Assembly: GCA_964566185.1 (NCBI GenBank)
Contig: CAZMHS010000002.1
Span: forward strand, 39,228-103,227
DNA length: 64,000 nt
Source: an uncultured Alphaproteobacteria bacterium
GTDB lineage: Bacteria > Pseudomonadota > Alphaproteobacteria > UBA3830 > CAYLKK01
Direction of reading: 5' to 3'
Shown one piece after another: positions 16,674 to 34,911 of the stretch. How positions within the stretch are numbered: position 1 is the stretch's first letter; each line of letters begins with the position of its first letter. Below the pieces are notes generated by a model. That model was given only the letters and a program-made list of their open reading frames with translations. It had not been told where the DNA came from and searched no databases. Both the position numbers and the translations under genes were made by a program.

Positions 16674-19370
16674 ATGCAACATTTTATGGAGCTTACAATG
16701 AACGAAATTAGCGATGTTTCTAACGAAGAATTAAGTGAAGCCACGCCTATGATGCAGCAGTACTTTGCGGCAAAGAAAGCGCACCCAGGAATATTAGTGT
16801 TTTTTCGTATGGGAGATTTTTATGAGCTATTCTTCGAAGATGCAAAAATCGTTGCTTCAGAGTTAAATTTAGTACTTACGACCAGAGGAAAACATCTCGG
16901 AGAGGATATTCCAATGAGTGGAGTCCCTGTAAGTTCCGTAGATTATTATCTTGGCAAGTTAGTTAAACTTGGATATAAAATAGCAATTTGCGAACAACTT
17001 GAATCTCCAGAAGAAGCTAAAAAACGTGGTTACAAGGCCATCGTAAAGCGTGGTATAACAAGGATTGTAACACCAGGAACAGTAACAGAGGAATCATTAC
17101 TTGACGCGAAAGAAGGAAATTTTTTAATGTCTATTGCTCCAAATATGAAAAAAGGCTCTGAACCTGATACAATATCATTTGCAGTAGCTGATGTATCGAC
17201 AGATAAACTTTTTGTACATACCGTTACAGCTTCCGATTTTTTAAACAGTTTGGAACAGTACGCTCCTCAAGAAGTGTTATGCCCAGCTGCTATAGAAGGA
17301 TGTAATTGGTTTAAGACAATAAAAAATTATGTTACAGGTCATATTACAATACTGTCTGATTCAAAATTTAATCCTATTACTGAAACAGATAGAGTAAAAA
17401 ACTATTATCAAGTTTCCGCTTTAGATGGTTTTGGACTTACATCAAGCTACGAAATTAGCGCATGTGGTGCAATTATAGAATATATCTCTGTTACACAATG
17501 TACAAATGCTCAAAAATTATCAAAGCCTATCAAAATAAATCAATCAAAGTTCATGATAGTTGATTCTGCAACGCATAGAAATTTAGAAATTGTACGTTCC
17601 AATAATGATAACAAACATAGTTTATTGCGACATATTGATAACACATGTACAGCATTTGGAGCTAGAATGTTAATGGCTAGACTAGTGACTCCAATCATTG
17701 ACATACAAGAGATTAATGATAGGCTTGATTCTGTCGAATTTTTTGTAAATAACGTCGATATTAGAAAAAAGCTGATGACAGTTATGAAGACGTGTCCTGA
17801 CATAGAGAGAATTATTGTAAGAATGCGCTTTAATAGATATTCTATAAGAGATTTGTCAGCGATTCGCCAATGCATAATCGTTGTTGAATCAATTAAGGAT
17901 ATTTTTATAAATTTAAATATAAAAATAGAAAACAAATTTTGTGCATCGGAATTGCCTGATTTGTCAATGTTACTTTCGAAGCTTCAGTCTGCACTGGTAG
18001 ATGATGTTCCAGCAACATATAAAGCTGGAGATGTTATAAAACGTGGATATTCTCAAAAATTAGATGAAATAAGATTTTTAGTAGAAGACGGTCACTCTTT
18101 AATTGCTGACTTACAAGCTAAGTATATATCAAAGTATGCAATCAATACGCTAAAAATTAAGAATAACAATATCTTAGGATGGTATATTGAAATCCCATTA
18201 TCGCAAAAGGGTAAGGTCGATAATTTTCTAATACACAAGCAGACTCTCGTCAATAACGTAAGGTATGTATCTGATGAACTAAATGAACTGCAAACACGTT
18301 TAGAACAAGCGTCTACTGATTTAGTTAGAGTAGAAAATGAAATAATTACAGAATTGGTTAATCTTATTACTGAGCTTATGGATGATTTCGCTGATATCGC
18401 GAACTTTATTGCAAGACTAGACATAGCTATTTCTATGGCATCTCTTGCAACCAATTGTCATTATTGTAGACCTCAGTTAACAACTGATAAAATATTGTCG
18501 ATAAAAAGTGGACGACATCCAGTACTAGAATCGCTAGTAGATGAATTTGTGCCTAATGATTGTGACTTGTGTGATCCTGGTCGCTTAAGTATCTTAACAG
18601 GGCCAAATATGGCCGGTAAAAGTACATATTTAAGACAAAATGCGTTGATTGTCTTAATGGCTCATATAGGTTCATTTGTTCCGGCACATTCAGCAATAAT
18701 AGGTATTACTGATAGGTTATTTAGCCGTATTGGAGCTTCAGATGATTTGGCTAAAGGTAGATCTACGTTTATGGTAGAAATGATAGAAACAGCGTCTATC
18801 TTAAACCAAGCTACTGATCGATCTTTTGTTATTTTAGATGAAGTAGGGCGAGGAACATCGACGTATGATGGAATATCAATTGCATGGTCTGTTGTGGAAT
18901 ACTTATATAATACAAACAGATGTAGAACTATTTTTGCTACACATTACCTTGAGCTTCTTGGAATAAAAAAAGATATTTCAGAATTAAAATGTCAAACATT
19001 AAAGGTGAATGAATGCAAGGGGAGGGTAATGTTTTATCACTCGATCATTGACGGCGTTGCTGATAAGGCATACGGCGTATATGTAGCTAAATTAGCAGGA
19101 TTACCAAAATCTGTAATACAAAAAGCGAATAGACTACTTGCAAAACTTGAAAATGGACCATTGAATCAAAAAAAATACATTTCACGTCAATTATCTATGT
19201 TTTCAGAATTTTCAGATAACACAGAAGATGATGATAGTATGTTATCAGCACATAATACTGATACAAAAAACGACGTAATCGCATCCATAACCTCTTTGGA
19301 TTTGAATGAAATGACGCCGAAGAAAGCACTAGACTTGCTATATGACCTCAAAAGAAAGTTAGTAGATTAA
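16674..19370 (+). CDS. mutS: DNA mismatch repair protein MutS
   Basis: 898 aa. Motifs TPMMQQY...GDFYELF, Walker A GPNMAGKST, and DEVGRGTSTYDG. Confidence 0.97.
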   Translation: MQHFMELTMNEISDVSNEELSEATPMMQQYFAAKKAHPGILVFFRMGDFYELFFEDAKIVASELNLVLTTRGKHLGEDIPMSGVPVSSVDYYLGKLVKLGYKIAICEQLESPEEAKKRGYKAIVKRGITRIVTPGTVTEESLLDAKEGNFLMSIAPNMKKGSEPDTISFAVADVSTDKLFVHTVTASDFLNSLEQYAPQEVLCPAAIEGCNWFKTIKNYVTGHITILSDSKFNPITETDRVKNYYQVSALDGFGLTSSYEISACGAIIEYISVTQCTNAQKLSKPIKINQSKFMIVDSATHRNLEIVRSNNDNKHSLLRHIDNTCTAFGARMLMARLVTPIIDIQEINDRLDSVEFFVNNVDIRKKLMTVMKTCPDIERIIVRMRFNRYSIRDLSAIRQCIIVVESIKDIFINLNIKIENKFCASELPDLSMLLSKLQSALVDDVPATYKAGDVIKRGYSQKLDEIRFLVEDGHSLIADLQAKYISKYAINTLKIKNNNILGWYIEIPLSQKGKVDNFLIHKQTLVNNVRYVSDELNELQTRLEQASTDLVRVENEIITELVNLITELMDDFADIANFIARLDIAISMASLATNCHYCRPQLTTDKILSIKSGRHPVLESLVDEFVPNDCDLCDPGRLSILTGPNMAGKSTYLRQNALIVLMAHIGSFVPAHSAIIGITDRLFSRIGASDDLAKGRSTFMVEMIETASILNQATDRSFVILDEVGRGTSTYDGISIAWSVVEYLYNTNRCRTIFATHYLELLGIKKDISELKCQTLKVNECKGRVMFYHSIIDGVADKAYGVYVAKLAGLPKSVIQKANRLLAKLENGPLNQKKYISRQLSMFSEFSDNTEDDDSMLSAHNTDTKNDVIASITSLDLNEMTPKKALDLLYDLKRKLVD

Positions 19371-27727: not shown

Positions 27728-27814
27728 TGGTGCCCCTGGCCGGAATCGAACCAGCACGCCCTTGCAGGCAATAGATTTTGAGTCTATCGCGTCTACCAGT
27801 TCCGCCACAGAGGC
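27728..27814 (-). tRNA. tRNA-Leu (anticodon CAA), type II long variable arm, CCA encoded
   Basis: The reverse complement GCCTCTGTGGCGGAACTGGTAGACGCGATAGACTCAAAATCTATTGCCTGCAAGGGCGTGCTGGTTCGATTCCGGCCAGGGGCACCA folds by hand. It has a 7-bp acceptor stem, anticodon stem ATAGA/TCTAT with loop CTCAAAA, a 15-nt variable arm, and T arm GCTGG-TTCGATT-CCGGC. Confidence 0.93.
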
Positions 27815-27825
27815 TCAATTCAAAT

Positions 27826-27902
<77 letters not shown>

Positions 27903-28038
27903 ACAACCGAACTACGAGTATGGTACCACGCTAATTTTATTACGTCAAGCATTTTTTTATGGTCACATGAGATAAAATGCTTCGTTTACAAACGTAATTA
28001 TGTTACAGTAGCACGTTATATGTAGAAATGAGGAAAAA

Positions 28039-28836
28039 GTGAAGTCATCAGCGTTAGCGGCTATACAGCGAACATTTCCGTGCGAATTAGATTTTCTAAA
28101 CAGTATCCCACTGAATAGCATTGTTACCTGCTATGAAAGCGAAGCTGCTGCTTGTGATTCGCCGGTTATAATTCGATTGGCAGGACAGTCAGGTAGTGGA
28201 AAATCATCGCAACTTTTGCCTGCTGTTTCAGATTCATTATCTACGACGAGTTTTATGCATATAACTGTTGGTAAATTTGCGAAATTTCACCCAAAATATC
28301 AGGATTTTTTAGAGCATACGCCACAAAATGTAAGAGAATTAACTAACGGATTTGCATTAAGATCATTGCTGTATTTTTTGGAACATTGCATAAAAAAACG
28401 AATGAATATCGTTTTGGATTTAACATTTTTAGATCCTGATTTTGAAATATACATTTTTTCATTAGCTAAAGAATACGGCTATAGATGTGTAACCAACGTA
28501 ATATGCATGCCGAAACGTCTTTCTGATAGTTTTATTTCAAAACGCGCCGAAGAAACAGGTCGGCTAGTGTCAAAGAAAACAGCTTGGTATCATTTTTCAA
28601 TATTGCCAGTTGCATTAAAAGCTATAATAAAATCTAATATTTTTGATGAAAAAGACCGTTTGATACTGTGGAGCAACACATGTTTAGAGCCAGTGTACGT
28701 ATCAAAACACAATGATTCACATTGCATGAATGTGCTGAATAGATGTCGAGCATCAAGTAACATGAACTTCTACGATTTAGACGCAGTGAAAAAAGCAAAA
28801 ACTGCGTGGTTAAAGGCTTTTTTTAAGGCGGAATAA
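28039..28836 (+). CDS. P-loop kinase, zeta-toxin/UNAG-kinase-like family
   Basis: 265 aa with a GTG start. Walker A LAGQSGSGKSS, followed by VGKFAKFHPKYQDFLEH...NIVLDLTF. This resembles the zeta-toxin layout (GxxGSGK[ST] ... D.fr..HP ... hydrophobic strand ending in T). Confidence 0.6.
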   Translation: MKSSALAAIQRTFPCELDFLNSIPLNSIVTCYESEAAACDSPVIIRLAGQSGSGKSSQLLPAVSDSLSTTSFMHITVGKFAKFHPKYQDFLEHTPQNVRELTNGFALRSLLYFLEHCIKKRMNIVLDLTFLDPDFEIYIFSLAKEYGYRCVTNVICMPKRLSDSFISKRAEETGRLVSKKTAWYHFSILPVALKAIIKSNIFDEKDRLILWSNTCLEPVYVSKHNDSHCMNVLNRCRASSNMNFYDLDAVKKAKTAWLKAFFKAE

Positions 28837-28837
28837 T

Positions 28838-29746
28838 ATGTATAAGTTTTTCGATTCAGATGAGAATGAGTTACGCAATATTATTAAAACGTCAATCCAG
28901 AGGATGAGGCAAGAAGCCATCACTATTAGCTGTATAAAAACTGGGTGGACTAACGTTGTGTTTGATGTGCAGTGCTACAACTGCGAATATATCTTTCGCT
29001 TTCCTAGAACTTCGTTTTTCGCTAAAGAGATGATTCGTGATTGTACCATGTGTAACTTAATACATGGCAAATTACCAATGCAGACACCGAACATACGTCT
29101 TGAGTTTGACAATGGCAGGCCTTTTTCGATACACAAAAAGATCCTAGGCACAGCGCTCAGTGATTTCGATTATAATATGATTTCCGACGAAAATTTACGC
29201 AATATAGCGGATTCTTGTGGACATTTTCTAGCAAAATTACACGAGCTGCCTACAGGACTTTTGCCTGCTGATTATCAAATTACTTTGAACGACTATCTGC
29301 TTAAACTAGCAGAAGTACACAACGGAGACTATATGTCATCACTTCATCAAGGATTACAAGAAATTGAGGAATCATGTAGCGATATGTGTATTGTACACGG
29401 AGATTTTCACCCTGGAAATATACTTATAGATGCAGACATGAATGTTGCTGCAGTTATTGACTTTTCGTTCTCGTCGCTGTCTGACCGAAGCTCAGATATT
29501 GGTAGATTCCTTAGCAGAACTAATCACATATTTAGCAATTTGCTAATTGAGTCTTACAATAAATACTCTAGAATTAAGTGCAATAAAGAATATGTAAATA
29601 CCATTGCAGATATATTTAAATATGTTGATTGTAAATATATAAATTATATGCATAAAAGTCATCCTTCTGTTGCTATATCTGATGCAGTGCTAGATCATGC
29701 TAATAGTTTTTTAAATTGTATAAATTTGAAAACAGCTTGTAATTAG
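28838..29746 (+). CDS. Phosphotransferase of the APH/choline-kinase (eukaryotic-like kinase) fold
   Basis: 302 aa. Catalytic loop IVHGDFHPGNILID, metal-binding VIDFSFSSLSD, and SSDIGRF. It starts 2 nt after the preceding kinase gene. Confidence 0.75.
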   Translation: MYKFFDSDENELRNIIKTSIQRMRQEAITISCIKTGWTNVVFDVQCYNCEYIFRFPRTSFFAKEMIRDCTMCNLIHGKLPMQTPNIRLEFDNGRPFSIHKKILGTALSDFDYNMISDENLRNIADSCGHFLAKLHELPTGLLPADYQITLNDYLLKLAEVHNGDYMSSLHQGLQEIEESCSDMCIVHGDFHPGNILIDADMNVAAVIDFSFSSLSDRSSDIGRFLSRTNHIFSNLLIESYNKYSRIKCNKEYVNTIADIFKYVDCKYINYMHKSHPSVAISDAVLDHANSFLNCINLKTACN

Positions 29747-29810
29747 AATACAGTTGTTAGATAATGAGTTTGATTGTTATACATGTTATACATTTCTTTG
29801 GGGTATTGAT

Positions 29811-30698
29811 GTGAAGGGAATTTTATTAGCTGGCGGAACTGGAAGTAGGTTGTATCCTTTAACTAGCGTTGTATCTAAACAGTTGCTACCTGTGTATGAT
29901 AAACCGATGATATATTACCCGTTATCAACACTAATGATGTTTGGAATAAAAGACATACTAATAATATCTACGCCAAATGACACACCAAATATCGAACATT
30001 TTCTGCGAAATGGAGAACATGTTGGGCTGAACTTGCAGTATGCTGTGCAAGAAAAACCTAACGGCATAGCACAAGCGTTTGTCATCGGAGATGACTTTAT
30101 AGGTAATGATGATGTTTGTTTGGTCCTTGGTGATAATATCTTTCACATGGGTGATCAATTTCATAAATTTAAAGAAATTGTGAAAAAAAACCAAGGCAAG
30201 AGCGCTACGATTTTTGCTTATCATGTTTCTGATCCAGAACGTTTTGGAGTAGTAGAGTTCGATGAGAATTTGAATGCGTTATCTATCGAGGAAAAACCTG
30301 CATTGCCGAAATCTAACTATGTTTCTGTTGGTTTGTACTTTTATCCACCAGACGTCATTACAAAAGCGAAGGAACTAAGGCCTTCTTATCGCGGAGAATT
30401 AGAAATTACGGATTTAAATAACGCATATCTAAATGAAAATCGTCTATCTGTGGTTCCGATGGGACGCGGAAATGCATGGCTAGATGCAGGAACACCGGAT
30501 AGCTTAATGGATTCTGGCGCGTTTGTTCAAATTATAGAAAAACGCCAGGGGCAAAAAATAGCCTGTATTGAAGAAATCGCATACAGAAATGGATACATAG
30601 ACAGGTCACAAATGGAAAAAATAATAGCAGCTTTAAAACCTGGTATGTATAAAACATATTTAGAGAAAATAATCAGTGAAGATCATGAAATTTTTTAA
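29811..30698 (+). CDS. rmlA: Glucose-1-phosphate thymidylyltransferase
   Basis: VKGILLAGGTGSRLYPLT... G-rich loop, and RmlA-like throughout. I prefer the GTG at 29811 to the upstream TTG used by the ORF track (29754). Confidence 0.95.
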   Translation: MKGILLAGGTGSRLYPLTSVVSKQLLPVYDKPMIYYPLSTLMMFGIKDILIISTPNDTPNIEHFLRNGEHVGLNLQYAVQEKPNGIAQAFVIGDDFIGNDDVCLVLGDNIFHMGDQFHKFKEIVKKNQGKSATIFAYHVSDPERFGVVEFDENLNALSIEEKPALPKSNYVSVGLYFYPPDVITKAKELRPSYRGELEITDLNNAYLNENRLSVVPMGRGNAWLDAGTPDSLMDSGAFVQIIEKRQGQKIACIEEIAYRNGYIDRSQMEKIIAALKPGMYKTYLEKIISEDHEIF

Positions 30699-31224
30699 GA
30701 CTGATATTGATGGCGTTGTGATTATTGAACCTAACGTTTTTACTGATGCTAGGGGGTATTTTTTTGAAAGCTATAACGAAAAAGAATTTTTTGAAAATGG
30801 TATTACAAACCGTTTTATTCAGGATAATCAGTCAGAATCTTGTTATGGCGTAATTCGCGGTCTTCACTGCCAAAGAGGAAGTTATGCGCAAGCCAAACTC
30901 GTTCGAGTTTTATACGGCAAAGTTCTTGACGTTGCTGTGGATATTCGACCAGGTTCTAGTACTTTCGGTAAGCATGTTTCTGTCGAGCTATCAGACATAA
31001 ACAAACGACAGCTATTTATACCGAAAGGTTTTTTGCATGGTTTTTCCGTTCTAAGTAAAAATGCAGTTTTCATGTATAAGGTAGATGCATTGTACTGTAA
31101 AGAGAGTGAATATGGCGTTAGATTTGACGATCCGGATATCGGGGTAGATTGGAAGATACCATCTGCTGATATAACAGTTGCAGACAAGGACAAGATGGCT
31201 AGGAGTTTTCGTGAATGCTTTTGA
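30685..31224 (+). CDS. rmlC: dTDP-4-dehydrorhamnose 3,5-epimerase
   Basis: Cupin epimerase with motifs FTDARGYFFESY, RGLHCQ and GFLHGF. I prefer the ATG at 30685 (MKFFKTDIDGVVIIEP). Confidence 0.93.
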   Translation: MKFFKTDIDGVVIIEPNVFTDARGYFFESYNEKEFFENGITNRFIQDNQSESCYGVIRGLHCQRGSYAQAKLVRVLYGKVLDVAVDIRPGSSTFGKHVSVELSDINKRQLFIPKGFLHGFSVLSKNAVFMYKVDALYCKESEYGVRFDDPDIGVDWKIPSADITVADKDKMARSFRECF

Positions 31225-32036
31225 TAACTGGTGGTAACGGACAGCTTGCGAGTGCATTAAAACCTTTTTTAAAAGATGCTTTGTTTGCAGACAGAAAAGC
31301 TCTTGACATTACTGATGAAAAGATGTTAGGTTATTATATAGTTCCGAATCGTATAGATACCATAATAAATTGTGCAGCATATACGTCAGTTGATGGAGCT
31401 GAAGAAGACGGACAACGTGCATTTGACGTAAATGTTGTTGGGGCTAGGAATGTAGCACGAAGTGGATGTCGAGTAATTCATATTTCTACAGATTACGTGT
31501 TCGATGGTAGTAAAAACACGCCGTATTTAACGACAGATGTAGCAAATCCATTATCTGTATACGGAAAGACCAAGTTGCTTGGAGAAAAGGAGATTGAAGA
31601 AAATGCGGATGTTTACGCGATAATACGAACGTCGTGGTTATATTCCGCGAAAGGACGGAATTTTTTTACAACGATGAGAAACCTAGGGCAGAGTAAGGCG
31701 GAGGTTAATGTAGTTTGTGACCAAATCGGCACACCTACGTATGCGGTTGATTTAGCTAGTGCCATTGTTCAGGTTACAAAATATCTTGATAAAAGAAATA
31801 CTGGGATATACCATTTTTCTAATGAAGGCGTATGCTCATGGTATGATTTTGCCTTTCAAATTATGGAAATGAACGGCTATTCTTGTGCCGTAAATCCAAT
31901 ATATAGCGTCGATTATCCGACTAAAGCAACAAGGCCAGCCTATTCTGTACTTGATAAGACGAAGATAAAAGACGTATTTAATGTAAAAACTAGACATTGG
32001 CAGAGAGGAGTAGAAGAATGCACAAGGTCATCTTAG
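31215..32036 (+). CDS. rmlD: dTDP-4-dehydrorhamnose reductase
   Basis: 273 aa. Rossmann start LITGGNGQL and YxxxK (YGKTK). Confidence 0.93.
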   Translation: MLLITGGNGQLASALKPFLKDALFADRKALDITDEKMLGYYIVPNRIDTIINCAAYTSVDGAEEDGQRAFDVNVVGARNVARSGCRVIHISTDYVFDGSKNTPYLTTDVANPLSVYGKTKLLGEKEIEENADVYAIIRTSWLYSAKGRNFFTTMRNLGQSKAEVNVVCDQIGTPTYAVDLASAIVQVTKYLDKRNTGIYHFSNEGVCSWYDFAFQIMEMNGYSCAVNPIYSVDYPTKATRPAYSVLDKTKIKDVFNVKTRHWQRGVEECTRSS

Positions 32037-33046
32037 TAACTGGAGGAGCAGGTTTTATCGGTTCGAACTTTGTTACTTATTTTTGTGAAAAGTATCATGA
32101 ATATGACATAGTCAATTTCGATAAATTAACGTATGCAGCAGATTTAAATAACTTGCAAGAATGTGAATCGCTGATGAATTATCACTTCGTTCACGGTGAT
32201 ATTTGCGACTTTGACTTTGTCTTTAATTTTATGCAAGAGAAAAGAGTTACCGATATTATTCATTTTGCAGCCGAAAGCCATGTTGATAATTCGATAAAAA
32301 ACCCTGGTGCATTCATAAATACAAACATAGTTGGAACGTTTAATTTGCTTGAAGCGGCAAGGCAGTGCTGGATGGATTCACCAGGAAATGTAAAAGAAAA
32401 CTATAAGATGAGTAGGTTTCATCATGTTTCTACAGACGAGGTGTTTGGCACGCTTGGTAAAAGAGGCGAGTTCACTGAAGAATCTCCGTATGCACCGAAT
32501 AGCCCGTACGCAGCAAGTAAGGCTAGTTCTGATTTTCTAGTTCGTTCATATTATCGTACCTACGGTTTGAATGTAACTACAAGCCATTGTTCAAATAACT
32601 ATGGACCAAAACAGCATCCTGAAAAATTAATTCCTAATACTATACGCCGAGCTCTTGAAGGTAAGGCAATACCTGTTTATGGAGATGGAATGAATGTCAG
32701 GGATTGGTTATATGTTTCCGATCATTGCGAAGCTATAGACTTGATCTTTCATAATGGAAGATCTGGAGAAACCTACAACATTGGATGTGAGAATGAGATA
32801 ACAAATATCCAACTTGTGAAAACCGTATGCTATATTTTAGATCGAAACTGTCCTAAGGAAAACATGCATTCTTATACAGAGCAAATTACGTTTGTAGAAG
32901 ACAGAGCAGGGCACGATTTCAGATATGCAATCGATGCCTCGAAAATTTGTAAGGAACTCGGATGGTGTTACAATATATATTTTGAAGAGGGTATAGAAAA
33001 AACGGTTGAGTGGTATGTAAGGAGATATCGATGCGAAAAAAACTAA
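32018..33046 (+). CDS. rmlB: dTDP-glucose 4,6-dehydratase
   Basis: MHKVILVTGGAGFIGS and YxxxK (YAASK). The ATG at 32018 is preceded by GAGGAG. Confidence 0.96.
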   Translation: MHKVILVTGGAGFIGSNFVTYFCEKYHEYDIVNFDKLTYAADLNNLQECESLMNYHFVHGDICDFDFVFNFMQEKRVTDIIHFAAESHVDNSIKNPGAFINTNIVGTFNLLEAARQCWMDSPGNVKENYKMSRFHHVSTDEVFGTLGKRGEFTEESPYAPNSPYAASKASSDFLVRSYYRTYGLNVTTSHCSNNYGPKQHPEKLIPNTIRRALEGKAIPVYGDGMNVRDWLYVSDHCEAIDLIFHNGRSGETYNIGCENEITNIQLVKTVCYILDRNCPKENMHSYTEQITFVEDRAGHDFRYAIDASKICKELGWCYNIYFEEGIEKTVEWYVRRYRCEKN

Positions 33047-34911
33047 AAAAGTTGGTTGTAAAAACAATTACAGCAGCATTGCTGTTTCCGTTTCCAAGCG
33101 CGCGTCGATTTGTAAATAAGTTTCTCATACATAATTCAATTCGGCGTGCATTTTTGACGTGTGCTTACGTCATATTTAAACGAAAGTATAAATATTATTT
33201 ATCATTAACGATTTGTATAAAAAATGAAGGAGAGTACATAAAAGAATGGATAGAATATTATTTAATTCAAAAAGTAGACCATTTCTACGTATATAACAAT
33301 AACGGCACAGATAGCACAAAAGAAATCTTACAACCTTATATCGATGCAGGATTCGTCACATGGATCGATTATCCAGGAATTGGAAAGCAAATAGAAATAT
33401 ACAATGACGCTATAAATAAATTTAGTTATGAAACCAAGTGGATGGGATTCATCGATGCAGACGAATTTATAGTTCCCCAGAAGCACGAAGACCTAGCATC
33501 TTTAATGAAAGAATATGAGGAATATTCTCAGCTATACATATATTTGGTAATATATGGCAGTTCATTTCATAAAAAAAAGGAAGCAGGATTTGTCATCGAT
33601 CGCTTTACATGGCATGAAGATATAACGCAACCGTTAACCCCAAGTTTAGGAAGGTGCATTATAAATCCAAGAAAGTGTTATTTCATGCGAATTCATTGTG
33701 CACGCGTTTTTGGTAAAACAGTAAATGCGAATAAAGACATTTTAAAGGTTGATAGAGATACACCAGAAATAAAACACGTTGTCGATATAGTTAGAATAAA
33801 TCATTATACTGTAAAATCGTATGAAGAGTGGCAAGCCAAAAGAATAAGAGGATATCCCGTGTCTATAAACGGCATTTCACAGCAGGTTCCTAACGAAAAT
33901 TTTAATGTACATGACTTAAATCATGTCAATGAGCCAGAATTAATGAGGAAATACTCGTCAGCTATTCGTTCTAATATAGCGAACAGGTTTCGGACATTAG
34001 TGCATGTACACATTTATTACGAAGAAATGTGGGAACAACTGAAAAACTGTGTATTAAATATTTCATGTCCGTTTAAGCTTTATGTAACTCTAGTGAAGGA
34101 AAATAACGCTATCAGGCTTGATATAGAACGAACGTTTCCTGACGCAGAAATTATTGTTATCGAAAACAGAGGTTATGACATATGGCCATTTGTGTATGTG
34201 TTAAATAAAGTAAATTTAGATGAGTTTGAATACGTTATTAAGCTGCATACGAAGAGAAATATGCACAAATATGCCAGAATGAATGGGTATAAGTTCGGAG
34301 GTAGTCGCTGGCGCGATTATATGCTTTCTATAGTTTCTTCAAGAAATAATTTTGCAAAAACTTTGCGAGCTTTTGAGCATACCAAACAGCTTGGCTTAAT
34401 CGCTGATTTTCGATTGCAGCATTCCAAAAAAGATCCTGATAAAGTAGCAAAAACGAAAGTACTTAATCTAGCCAAAAAACTAGGTATGAATGTCCCTAAA
34501 TATACGTTCGTCGCAGGAAGTATGTTTATGTGCAGAGCGAAATTGCTGAAACCTCTACAAAATCTGAAACTTAGAGAAACGGATTTTGAAGAAGGTTGTA
34601 AAGGACATTCAGGAGGCCAAATGGCTCATGTGATAGAACGCTTTATCAGCTTATCTGTACTAAGTACTGGTTTCGAGATAAAAGATGTTATAACGCCAAA
34701 TCAAACCATGCTAAAGCTGTATAAATTTATTACAGATTTTATCTTTTTGGCTAGGGTAACGCTGTCAGGTCATTTTATCGTAACAATATTTGCAATTCCT
34801 GTATTCTATATGCCATTACATATCGTTCGTAATATGAAGCGAGCAATATATGGATTAGTTAAGAGAATTGTTATCAAAATATATCAGAGTTGCAGAATCT
34901 GGGGCAGCTAG
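33031..34911 (+). CDS. Two-domain glycosyltransferase: N-terminal GT-A (GT92/GT2-like) domain fused to a rhamnan-synthesis-F (RgpF)-like domain
   Basis: N-terminal half: KNEGEYIKEWIEYYLIQKVDHFYVYNNNGTD ... GFIDADEF (DxD). C-terminal half: HVHIYYEEMW ... ENRGYDIWPF ... HTKR, with a hydrophobic tail. The ATG at 33031 is preceded by AAGGAG. Confidence 0.75.
   Translation: MRKKLKKLVVKTITAALLFPFPSARRFVNKFLIHNSIRRAFLTCAYVIFKRKYKYYLSLTICIKNEGEYIKEWIEYYLIQKVDHFYVYNNNGTDSTKEILQPYIDAGFVTWIDYPGIGKQIEIYNDAINKFSYETKWMGFIDADEFIVPQKHEDLASLMKEYEEYSQLYIYLVIYGSSFHKKKEAGFVIDRFTWHEDITQPLTPSLGRCIINPRKCYFMRIHCARVFGKTVNANKDILKVDRDTPEIKHVVDIVRINHYTVKSYEEWQAKRIRGYPVSINGISQQVPNENFNVHDLNHVNEPELMRKYSSAIRSNIANRFRTLVHVHIYYEEMWEQLKNCVLNISCPFKLYVTLVKENNAIRLDIERTFPDAEIIVIENRGYDIWPFVYVLNKVNLDEFEYVIKLHTKRNMHKYARMNGYKFGGSRWRDYMLSIVSSRNNFAKTLRAFEHTKQLGLIADFRLQHSKKDPDKVAKTKVLNLAKKLGMNVPKYTFVAGSMFMCRAKLLKPLQNLKLRETDFEEGCKGHSGGQMAHVIERFISLSVLSTGFEIKDVITPNQTMLKLYKFITDFIFLARVTLSGHFIVTIFAIPVFYMPLHIVRNMKRAIYGLVKRIVIKIYQSCRIWGS

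Follow-up and report, generated by a model that had tools for sequence, protein, structure and literature searches.

The kinase pair

The window analysed here, a stretch of 64,000 nucleotides from an uncultured alphaproteobacterium (contig CAZMHS010000002.1 of assembly GCA_964566185.1), contains two adjacent kinase-like genes on its forward strand, namely a 265-aa zeta-like gene with a GTG start (28039-28836, +) and a 302-aa gene of the APH (aminoglycoside phosphotransferase) type (28838-29746, +). Both open reading frames (ORFs), together with their motifs and family assignments, had been proposed in an earlier note made from the sequence alone, and all of this was borne out: Zeta_toxin is the best P-loop match of the first protein, zeta/PezT are its best relatives in sequence as well as in fold, and the partner is of the APH fold, its catalytic loop being intact. 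The note furthermore placed the coupled kinases upstream of rmlACDB and a rhamnosyltransferase-like gene, an arrangement that stands, although the gap between the kinase genes is 1 nt and not 2 as had been claimed. On our best reading the pair is neither a UDP-N-acetylglucosamine (UDP-GlcNAc, UNAG) kinase toxin, nor a known resistance gene, nor a rhamnose-pathway enzyme. The features that delimit it are as follows.

28030..28041, +: ribosome-binding site GAGGA (28030-34), four bases before the GTG start of the zeta-like gene, read directly from the sequence
28834..28840, +: junction TAA-T-ATG, with the zeta-like stop at 28834-36, 1 nt, and the APH ATG at 28838, indicating tight coupling
29747..29810, +: AT-rich spacer of 64 nt from the APH stop to the probable rmlA start, taken as the module boundary, the rml genes beyond it being neighbours

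The zeta-like protein aligns to its homologues from residue 1 onward, consistent with the GTG start, and at homologous loci the junction between the two genes shows overlaps of 8-31 nt or full fusion.

Conservation of the pair across phyla

One genome per species was scanned with a profile of the zeta-like family, yielding 78 loci, and pairs were detected with hidden Markov models (HMMs) built from both families and searched against the six-frame ORFs of all loci. Of 85 non-redundant loci, 47 have an APH-family gene directly beside the zeta-like one, and all of these come from metagenome-assembled genomes (MAGs) whose labels span at least six phyla, and the lineages with an adjacent pair comprise Alphaproteobacteria, Rickettsiales/Holosporales, Clostridia, Synergistales, Saccharibacteria, Nomurabacteria and Prevotella. 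The two genes are co-directional and overlapping or near-abutting at 14 loci, found in gut Alphaproteobacteria (including the window) and some Rickettsiales, and they are convergent with overlapping 3' ends at 29 loci, labelled as Clostridia and other Firmicutes, Synergistales, Saccharibacteria, Nomurabacteria, some Rickettsiales, one Prevotella and one Eggerthellaceae MAG. In gene order and gene lengths the Eggerthellaceae locus (L045) matches L007 and L047 from Clostridiales, which suggests a mis-binned contig or a recent transfer. A single metagenome locus has the reverse order, with APH before zeta.

Four Holosporales MAGs encode both proteins as a single fused ORF of 570-659 aa, and an exhaustive protein search added two more Zeta-APH fusion proteins from metagenomes, in which the zeta C-terminus runs directly into the APH N-terminal motif ('...KLTYF...'). 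This geometry is as expected from loss of the stop codon between coupled genes. Furthermore, the pairwise identities of the two proteins correlate over the 47 loci (Pearson r = 0.86, Spearman 0.51), a correlated divergence that fits co-inheritance of both proteins. Divergence between phyla is deep (25-45% identity), the pair is retained in the reduced genomes of Saccharibacteria and Holosporales, and wherever a record title states a source, this is an animal digestive tract (rumen, termite gut, or the gut of human, mouse, rabbit, horse or yak). When metagenomes were scanned with the APH profile mostly unrelated APH-family genes were obtained, and six loci (L092-L097) belong to the family described here. 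Comparison with the 98%-identical strain L091 gave ratios of nonsynonymous to synonymous polymorphism (pN/pS) of 0.11 for the zeta-like gene and 0.17 for the APH gene, from which we can conclude that both genes are under purifying selection and functional.

The zeta-like protein has a remodelled acceptor site

The zeta-like protein carries the motifs LAGQSGSGKSS, FAKFHPKYQDF and NIVLDLTF and matches Pfam Zeta_toxin (PF06414) with an E-value of 1.9e-23 and 83.4 bits against a gathering cut-off of 22.3, the match to AAA_33 lying below its own cut-off, so the P-loop family named in the earlier note holds up in Pfam. Its AlphaFold2 (AF2) model has a mean predicted local distance difference test (pLDDT) score of 93.3, and the best Foldseek matches of this model are zeta (3q8x/1gvn) and PezT (2p5t), with E-values of 2e-12 to 6e-10 and a template modelling (TM) score of about 0.69, followed at lower rank by PFK-2, adenylate kinases, AvrRxo1 (TM 0.57) and polynucleotide kinase. 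The family profile likewise finds PezT (E 2.7e-18). An exhaustive profile search among 1.84 billion representatives returned 86 clusters (50% identity) at E <= 1e-30, with full-length family members scoring about 196-335 bits and other zeta-like proteins about 120 or less. The window protein is thus a true zeta-fold protein that belongs to a distinct subfamily of Pfam Zeta_toxin.

In zeta and PezT the UDP-GlcNAc kinase activity is defined by the Walker A lysine, the catalytic base Asp67 (PezT Asp66) and the GTXR motif (Gly117-Thr121), with assistance from Glu100 and Thr128 (PMC3062530, PMC6362051). The aspartate contacts the 3'-OH of GlcNAc (PMC3062530), the GTXR motif binds the UDP phosphates (PMC6362051), and both Asp67 and the GTXR arginine are required for UNAG kinase toxicity (PMC3062530, PMC6362051).

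For a comparison of these columns, one HMM served to align 61 representatives of the family and 41 Zeta_toxin-like proteins outside it, taken from the same search, while invariance was counted in a separate set of 144 family members and residue correspondences were taken from pairwise and profile alignments. The positions concerned lie in the window at the following coordinates.

28183..28206, +: Walker A loop G49-QSGSGK55-S56, invariant in 144 members and aligning to zeta GGQPGSGKT, with Lys55 equivalent to zeta Lys46
28270..28272, +: codon of Gly78, the column of the zeta catalytic base Asp67, mostly Arg in the family
28333..28335, +: codon of Arg99 in the motif R-E-x-T-N-G-F-A, Arg in 144/144 and 61/61 members and not conserved among other Zeta_toxin-like proteins
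28417..28446, +: Asp127 (the Walker B acid, zeta Glu116), T129-F-L131 in place of GTXR, and Glu136, as placed by the alignments

Going from zeta to the window protein, Lys46, Asp67 and Glu100 correspond to Lys55, Gly78 and Leu111, Glu116, Gly117 and Thr118 to Asp127, Leu128 and Thr129, and Arg120, Thr121 and Arg158 to Leu131, Asp132 and Arg169. The Walker A lysine, the Walker B acid and the lid arginines Arg169 and Arg175 are conserved in the family, and the residues that are invariant or nearly so over the 144 members are R46, the Walker A loop, Q58, P85, R99, T102, F105, Y148, R169, R175, F185, W211 and K254. The Asp67 column, in contrast, holds Asp in none of the 61 representatives and never Glu (R 55, G 3, Q 1, S 1), against Asp in 41/41 of the other zeta-like proteins; in the alphaproteobacterial clade of the window the residue at position 78 is Gly and the next one is variable. 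The GTXR motif (zeta Gly117-Thr121) is replaced by L-T-F-L-D, so that the threonine alone is retained, and the Arg120 column, which holds Arg in 25/41 of the other proteins, is occupied by Leu, Val or Ile in the family. Position 136 is Glu in 60 and Asp in one of the 61 members, and Arg99 and Glu136 are invariant solely in this family. Judging by these alignments, the zeta-like enzyme has an intact ATP side and a rebuilt acceptor side. UDP-GlcNAc, which the earlier note had named as the substrate of characterised zeta toxins, can hardly be carried over to this protein, since the catalytic Asp67 and the GTXR arginine are missing.

The loss of these residues also bears on the idea that the gene is an orphan zeta toxin, of toxin-antitoxin or abortive-infection type, whose antidote is the APH-like protein or the product of an unlinked gene. 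Membership of Pfam Zeta_toxin and the zeta/PezT fold agree with this idea, orphan PezT/zeta genes have been reported (PMC10532202), and the homologue P0006 carries an N-terminal RelB/DinJ antitoxin-type domain. However, no member has Asp67 or the GTXR arginine, and an epsilon/PezA-like antitoxin ORF was not found upstream of the window gene, as the earlier note had also reported; this region holds 135 non-coding nt and then two minus-strand tRNA genes, tRNA-Leu(CAA) and tRNA-Met(CAT) (27728-27902, -), followed by the TrpRS gene. Across loci there is moreover neither a conserved small upstream ORF nor a recurrent upstream gene, and in many genomes the zeta-like gene has no adjacent partner at all. 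A toxin is likewise in poor agreement with purifying selection, with retention in very small genomes, and with a setting among core genes, outside islands, plasmids and phages and without a PADLOC match, and we regard it as highly improbable. The suggestion in the earlier note that the first gene is a non-toxin, 'domesticated' zeta-type kinase is probably right.

Losing the base might alternatively mean that the zeta-like protein is a pseudokinase that binds nucleotides without catalysis and regulates the APH-fold kinase as its subunit, and both the absence of a catalytic base that all other zeta-like proteins possess and the tight coupling or fusion with APH would fit such a role. The strict conservation of Walker A, Walker B and both lid arginines, and in addition of R99, T102, N103 and E136 in the acceptor region, is however a pattern typical of an active enzyme with a changed substrate, and the zeta-like protein is also encoded at loci that have no adjacent APH gene. 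A purely regulatory role is therefore very unlikely.

The APH-fold partner

The partner matches Pfam APH (PF01636) with an E-value of 4.7e-24 and 85.9 bits against a cut-off of 23.2, and its AF2 model has a pLDDT of 92.3. The closest structures in the Protein Data Bank (PDB) are APH(2'')-IVa/IIIa/Ia and Mph(2') (phmmer E 4e-10, Foldseek E about 3e-15, TM about 0.67), at identities of 12-20%. The active site is found here:

29396..29461, +: catalytic loop H187-G-D189-F-H-P-G-N194 (HGDFHPGN) and metal-binding Asp208 (IDF), with D189, G193, N194 and D208 invariant

In an alignment of 24 sequences the residues invariant across phyla are G36-W-T-N39, R54-F-P-R57, P95-F96, D189, G193-N194, D208, D220 and R227, and the catalytic machinery of the partner, judged by these positions, is complete. 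Where APH(2'')-IVa has its strand-3 lysine (FKFPK), the partner family has an invariant arginine (FRFPR); an arginine at this position is common in non-antibiotic members of the APH fold, such as the choline kinases. The window and 46 other loci share the full combination of a zeta-like protein with no Asp in the Asp67 column and with Arg99 and Glu136, and an APH protein with TGWTN and FRFPR, encoded next to it or fused to it.

The closest solved structures being APH(2'')-IVa/IIIa/Ia and Mph(2'), one may ask whether the two genes form a two-enzyme resistance cassette against a gut-made compound of the aminoglycoside, macrolide or nucleoside type, a possibility that is also in agreement with the patchy distribution across phyla, with gut samples wherever a source is stated, and with the two ABC exporter genes that adjoin the pair in Clostridia. 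Against this, the curated resistance models for APH(2''), APH(3') and Mph (NCBIfam) give best scores of only 20-31 bits where the cut-offs are 205-650, and because these scores are so far below the cut-offs the partner is not a known resistance gene; its identity to the APH(2'')/Mph structures is low as well, as given above. The pair is furthermore present in intracellular Holosporales and in Saccharibacteria and absent from plasmids, and the deep divergence between phyla makes a recent spread unlikely. We therefore consider a resistance cassette unlikely.

Genomic surroundings

Downstream of the pair the window contains rmlA, rmlC, rmlD and rmlB and then a 633-aa GT92/GT2+RgpF protein, all confirmed by Pfam. 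The rmlA start is probably the GTG at 29811, matching the gene call in the 98%-identical strain L091, and promoter-like hexamers overlap the 64-nt spacer before it, the region as a whole being no richer in such hexamers than shuffled sequence. The earlier note suggested from this position that the kinases may serve a dTDP-rhamnose or rhamnan pathway, either phosphorylating a nucleotide sugar or adding a phospho-substituent to the glycan. It is true that the pair lies on the same strand directly before rmlACDB and the GT2/RgpF gene in both the window and the 98%-identical strain, that there is no terminator-like site in between, and that for both enzymes the characterised relatives have sugars or nucleotide sugars as substrates. 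However, the rhamnose and glycan genes are not part of the conserved arrangement, since BLASTP searches with RmlA, RmlB, RmlC, RmlD, the glycosyltransferase and KdsD of the window against all ORFs of 88 related loci returned no homologue at a distance of up to about 10 kb from the zeta-like gene (rml or RgpF in 0/88), and rmlA and rmlC after the pair are kept only in L091. Zeta-like homologues of 49%, 46% and 39% identity do have an adjacent APH gene, but are otherwise flanked by AddB/MutS, glycogen synthase/DUF2147 and a short-chain dehydrogenase/IleRS, respectively, and in a relative with a 55%-identical APH protein RNase HII is followed by the pair and then by DedA/DsbB; two further relatives have LolA or Lgt upstream of the pair. 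The pair is also found beside unrelated genes in Saccharibacteria and Clostridia, and the APH-rmlA spacer of 64 nt contrasts with the 1 nt between the kinase genes. The pair thus occurs independently of glycan genes, an outcome that the earlier note had itself named beforehand as refuting its proposal; a role in rhamnose metabolism is very unlikely, and the position beside rhamnose genes in the window is incidental.

The neighbours of the pair are mostly housekeeping genes (RecA, tRNA synthetases, RRF, SecDF, NDK), and synteny is lineage-specific only. Thus the bacteria of the candidate phyla radiation (CPR) have DAGK_cat immediately upstream of the zeta-like gene, in a group of Clostridia two genes for ABC exporters lie upstream and, past the APH gene, glmS together with a GNAT gene, Opitutales have rpsD-rpoA-rplQ upstream, and Puniceicoccales have MlaEFD upstream. 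In Saccharibacteria and Nomurabacteria (L008 7123-9983; L076 and L077, about 9100-12000; 13 CPR loci) the zeta-like gene overlaps at its start with DAGK_cat, a lipid-kinase-like gene, and a gene for an AAA_17/18 P-loop kinase comes next, sometimes with the APH gene or a small ORF that has a DxDG motif, possibly HAD-like, and no Pfam match, so that up to four kinase genes in a row adjoin polA. In about 11 Clostridia loci (L007 7185-10212 (-), L045, L047, L050, L052, L055, L060, L064, L072, L075 and L088) glmS precedes a co-directional APH gene at a distance of about 35-90 nt, and some of these loci have a 109-aa ORF between the two; Rfam detected no glmS ribozyme in the four of these loci that were scanned (L007, L050, L060, L072).

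Close homologues on sequenced plasmids or phages were not found, and an origin in mobile elements was accordingly set aside. Membership of a known defence system was likewise rejected: PADLOC gave no match for the zeta-like protein and only weak generic kinase matches for the APH partner (E 2e-4 or worse), and PHROG matches were to families of unknown function only. Adjacency to tRNA genes was considered as a possible mark of integration and rejected, as it occurs in 4/85 loci (the window, L005, L057 and L079), approximately what tRNA density predicts.

The remainder of the window is ordinary core chromosome, with genes for ATP synthase, GyrB, MutS, SpoT, ThrRS, GlmS, GltX and FtsZ. MutS (16674-19370, +) lies about 9 kb upstream of the pair and is found directly after the pair in the 49%-identical relative L001, which may be a remnant of older synteny. 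The rml genes are very compactly arranged in the order A-C-D-B (30676-33046, +), the rmlA/rmlC, rmlC/rmlD, rmlD/rmlB and rmlB/glycosyltransferase ORFs overlapping by about 10-40 nt each; the 633-aa protein (33010-34911, +), whose ORF overlaps the end of rmlB, combines an N-terminal GT92/GT2 with a C-terminal RgpF (rhamnan synthesis) domain and has no NCBIfam model. Gene orientation switches at about 27.9-28.0 kb, all genes from 21.7 to 27.9 kb being on the minus and all from 28.0 to 37.8 kb on the plus strand, and the minimum of the cumulative GC skew coincides with this switch, which could be replication-related or simply reflect strand-linked skew. The G+C content departs to 0.28-0.31 at 1-1000 and 12000-15000 and to 0.42-0.44 at 4000-5000 and 60000-61000 (the genes for ATP synthase alpha and ftsZ).

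Proposed function

On balance, if by no means securely, we favour the notion that the two genes form a self-contained, vertically maintained two-kinase module that is common in bacteria of the animal gut and unrelated to rml genes, and that both enzymes most likely act on one small metabolite in a housekeeping or salvage role. Both proteins look catalytically competent as far as their conserved residues indicate, and the fact that two kinases are tightly coupled and even fused points to one pathway and usually to one molecule. The two enzymes would thus cooperate, probably as a complex. The APH-fold enzyme would phosphorylate a hydroxyl group of the metabolite, a role proposed because its closest solved relatives phosphorylate amino-sugar hydroxyls, and the zeta-like enzyme would then phosphorylate the same molecule or its phosphorylated product, the outcome being a bis-phosphorylated or diphosphorylated compound according to a scheme X-OH -> X-P -> X-PP, or a bisphosphate.

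For the zeta fold, phosphorylation of a hydroxyl on the sugar of a nucleotide-linked substrate is established, and P-loop kinases built in this way activate the hydroxyl acceptor through a carboxylate at the end of strand 2. Phosphate-acceptor kinases of the nucleoside monophosphate (NMP) kinase type lack that carboxylate, have arginines instead and need no general base. The exchange of Asp67 for Arg together with the invariant Arg99 therefore suggests an anionic acceptor for the zeta-like enzyme, possibly a phosphate, an assignment by analogy to which we attach low confidence. As to the nature of the metabolite, which would be anionic or resemble an amino sugar or a nucleotide, the clues differ between lineages. 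The position of the APH gene after glmS in about 11 Clostridia loci weakly hints at an amino sugar or cell-wall precursor, DAGK_cat in CPR bacteria, one Z-IspH fusion and the Mla, LolA, Lgt and DedA neighbours hint equally weakly at a lipid or isoprenoid, and one HAD-Z fusion together with the AAA_18 kinase gene and PolA nearby in CPR bacteria gives a weak hint of a nucleotide. Each clue is confined to one lineage, and the idea of an isoprenoid alcohol or lipid is therefore kept only as a possibility. The absence of riboswitches, described below, furthermore argues against those vitamin-salvage routes that commonly carry them, thiamine being an example.

In its most specific form the proposal is that gut bacteria possess a two-step phosphorylation pathway in which the zeta-derived enzyme (Asp -> Arg/Gly) acts on the product of the APH(2'')-like kinase, giving a salvaged metabolite in di- or bisphosphate form, for instance an amino sugar, an isoprenoid alcohol or a compound of nucleoside type, and in which the partner family would be the nearest housekeeping relative of the APH(2'')/Mph resistance enzymes. 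We put this forward tentatively, as an idea that is at present easier to doubt than to rely on.

Several observations weigh against a dedicated two-kinase module acting on one metabolite. About 45% of the loci have no APH gene within 10 kb, including all 15 from Verrucomicrobia and several from Rickettsiales and Saccharibacteria, and the zeta-like enzyme can thus work alone or with an unlinked partner. In most lineages with the pair the genes are convergent and are therefore not co-transcribed there, and the correlated divergence of the two proteins could result from shared phylogeny alone. The zeta-like domain is in addition fused to other domains that point in differing directions, namely a C-terminal IspH/LytB, an N-terminal HAD phosphatase and an N-terminal RelB/DinJ ribbon-helix-helix domain (the proteins carrying the IspH, HAD and RelB fusions are P0091, P0094 and P0006, the RelB/DinJ one being P0006). 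A third conserved partner, which might have pointed to the substrate, was not found, a result that on the other hand agrees with a self-contained pair; the 149 families obtained by clustering 1109 neighbouring ORFs matched 185 Pfam families, none of which occurred more than 2 times. Nor did Rfam reveal a riboswitch near the pair in the window, in its 5' region at a permissive threshold, or in 29 loci, the hits being tRNAs and one lysine riboswitch; the latter (104 bits; L061 4414-4595, +) precedes a 588-aa gene two genes downstream of the pair and is unrelated to it. As regards the chemistry, the Gly that the clade of the window has in place of Arg at position 78 weakens the phosphate-acceptor argument for this particular gene, and Glu136 might serve as a general base at a new position, acting on an ordinary hydroxyl acceptor. 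Finally, in the literature searched we found neither a description nor a characterised member of the subfamily, and no account of the Asp67 replacement or of the pairing or fusion with APH.

If the proposed two-step pathway exists, it would be important enough to have been retained by ultra-small Saccharibacteria and intracellular Holosporales, and if it is a new salvage or precursor pathway, it would supply a missing reaction to metabolic models of little-understood gut lineages, among them Saccharibacteria, gut Alphaproteobacteria and the endosymbionts of termite-gut protists.

Comparison with known systems

The closest known systems are the zeta/PezT toxins (epsilon-zeta and PezAT; UDP-GlcNAc 3'-kinases; 1gvn, 3q8x, 2p5t), which belong to the same Pfam family, have the same fold and are the best matches in sequence and structure. 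They share with the window protein the Walker A motif GxxGSGK(T/S), the F-x-x-x-H-P motif, the Walker B acid, Thr118 and a lid arginine (zeta Arg158, equivalent to Arg169), but differ in that Asp67 is Gly in the window and Arg in most members, that Gly117 and Arg120 have become hydrophobic, and that Glu100 and Thr128 are not conserved. Unlike these toxins, the window gene and its family have no antitoxin gene, have a second kinase as partner and are chromosomal among core genes.

That the zeta fold can be re-targeted is known from AvrRxo1 (NAD 3'-kinase, 4z8t) and Rv0366c of M. tuberculosis, both of which have a substrate other than UDP-GlcNAc and a divergent GTXR region. Rv0366c, however, keeps the catalytic aspartate that the window family has lost, AvrRxo1 is described as having one as well, and both pair with an antitoxin or chaperone; the structural similarity of AvrRxo1 to the window protein is in addition lower than that of zeta (TM 0.57 vs 0.69). 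Kinases of the adenylate kinase type share the P-loop core and the lid arginines and likewise lack a carboxylate base where strand 2 ends, yet there is no detectable sequence relation beyond the P-loop core and the clade of the window has Gly and not Arg, so that the likeness is a mechanistic analogy only.

The second gene has the fold and the catalytic loop (HGD...N, DFG-like Asp) of the APH(2'')-IVa/IIIa/Ia and Mph(2') kinases but differs from them by its own invariant motifs TGWTN, FRFPR and RPFS, by its obligate-looking zeta-like partner and by an identity of merely 12-20%. Members of the same two Pfam families do occur side by side on Inc18-type resistance plasmids and transposons of enterococci and clostridia, where zeta toxin genes are found near aph genes. 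These are however canonical epsilon-zeta addiction modules accompanied by unrelated resistance genes on mobile elements, and the pair in the window resembles neither component and is found on no plasmid.

In the source databases the proteins bear generic names such as 'zeta toxin family protein', 'aminoglycoside phosphotransferase family protein' or 'hypothetical', and the labels 'zeta toxin family protein' and 'aminoglycoside phosphotransferase' would mislead surveys of toxin-antitoxin systems and resistomes. The two folds are familiar ones, and earlier work has already noted orphan homologues of zeta (PMC10532202); for the subfamily, the replacement of Asp67 and the pairing or fusion with APH no earlier description was found in the literature searched. 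What is known of zeta-fold kinases concerns mainly toxins acting against cell-wall synthesis, whereas the family described here has a rebuilt acceptor site, no antitoxin and a second kinase as a steady partner, and if the proposed function is correct it would constitute a clear case of a toxin fold serving housekeeping chemistry.

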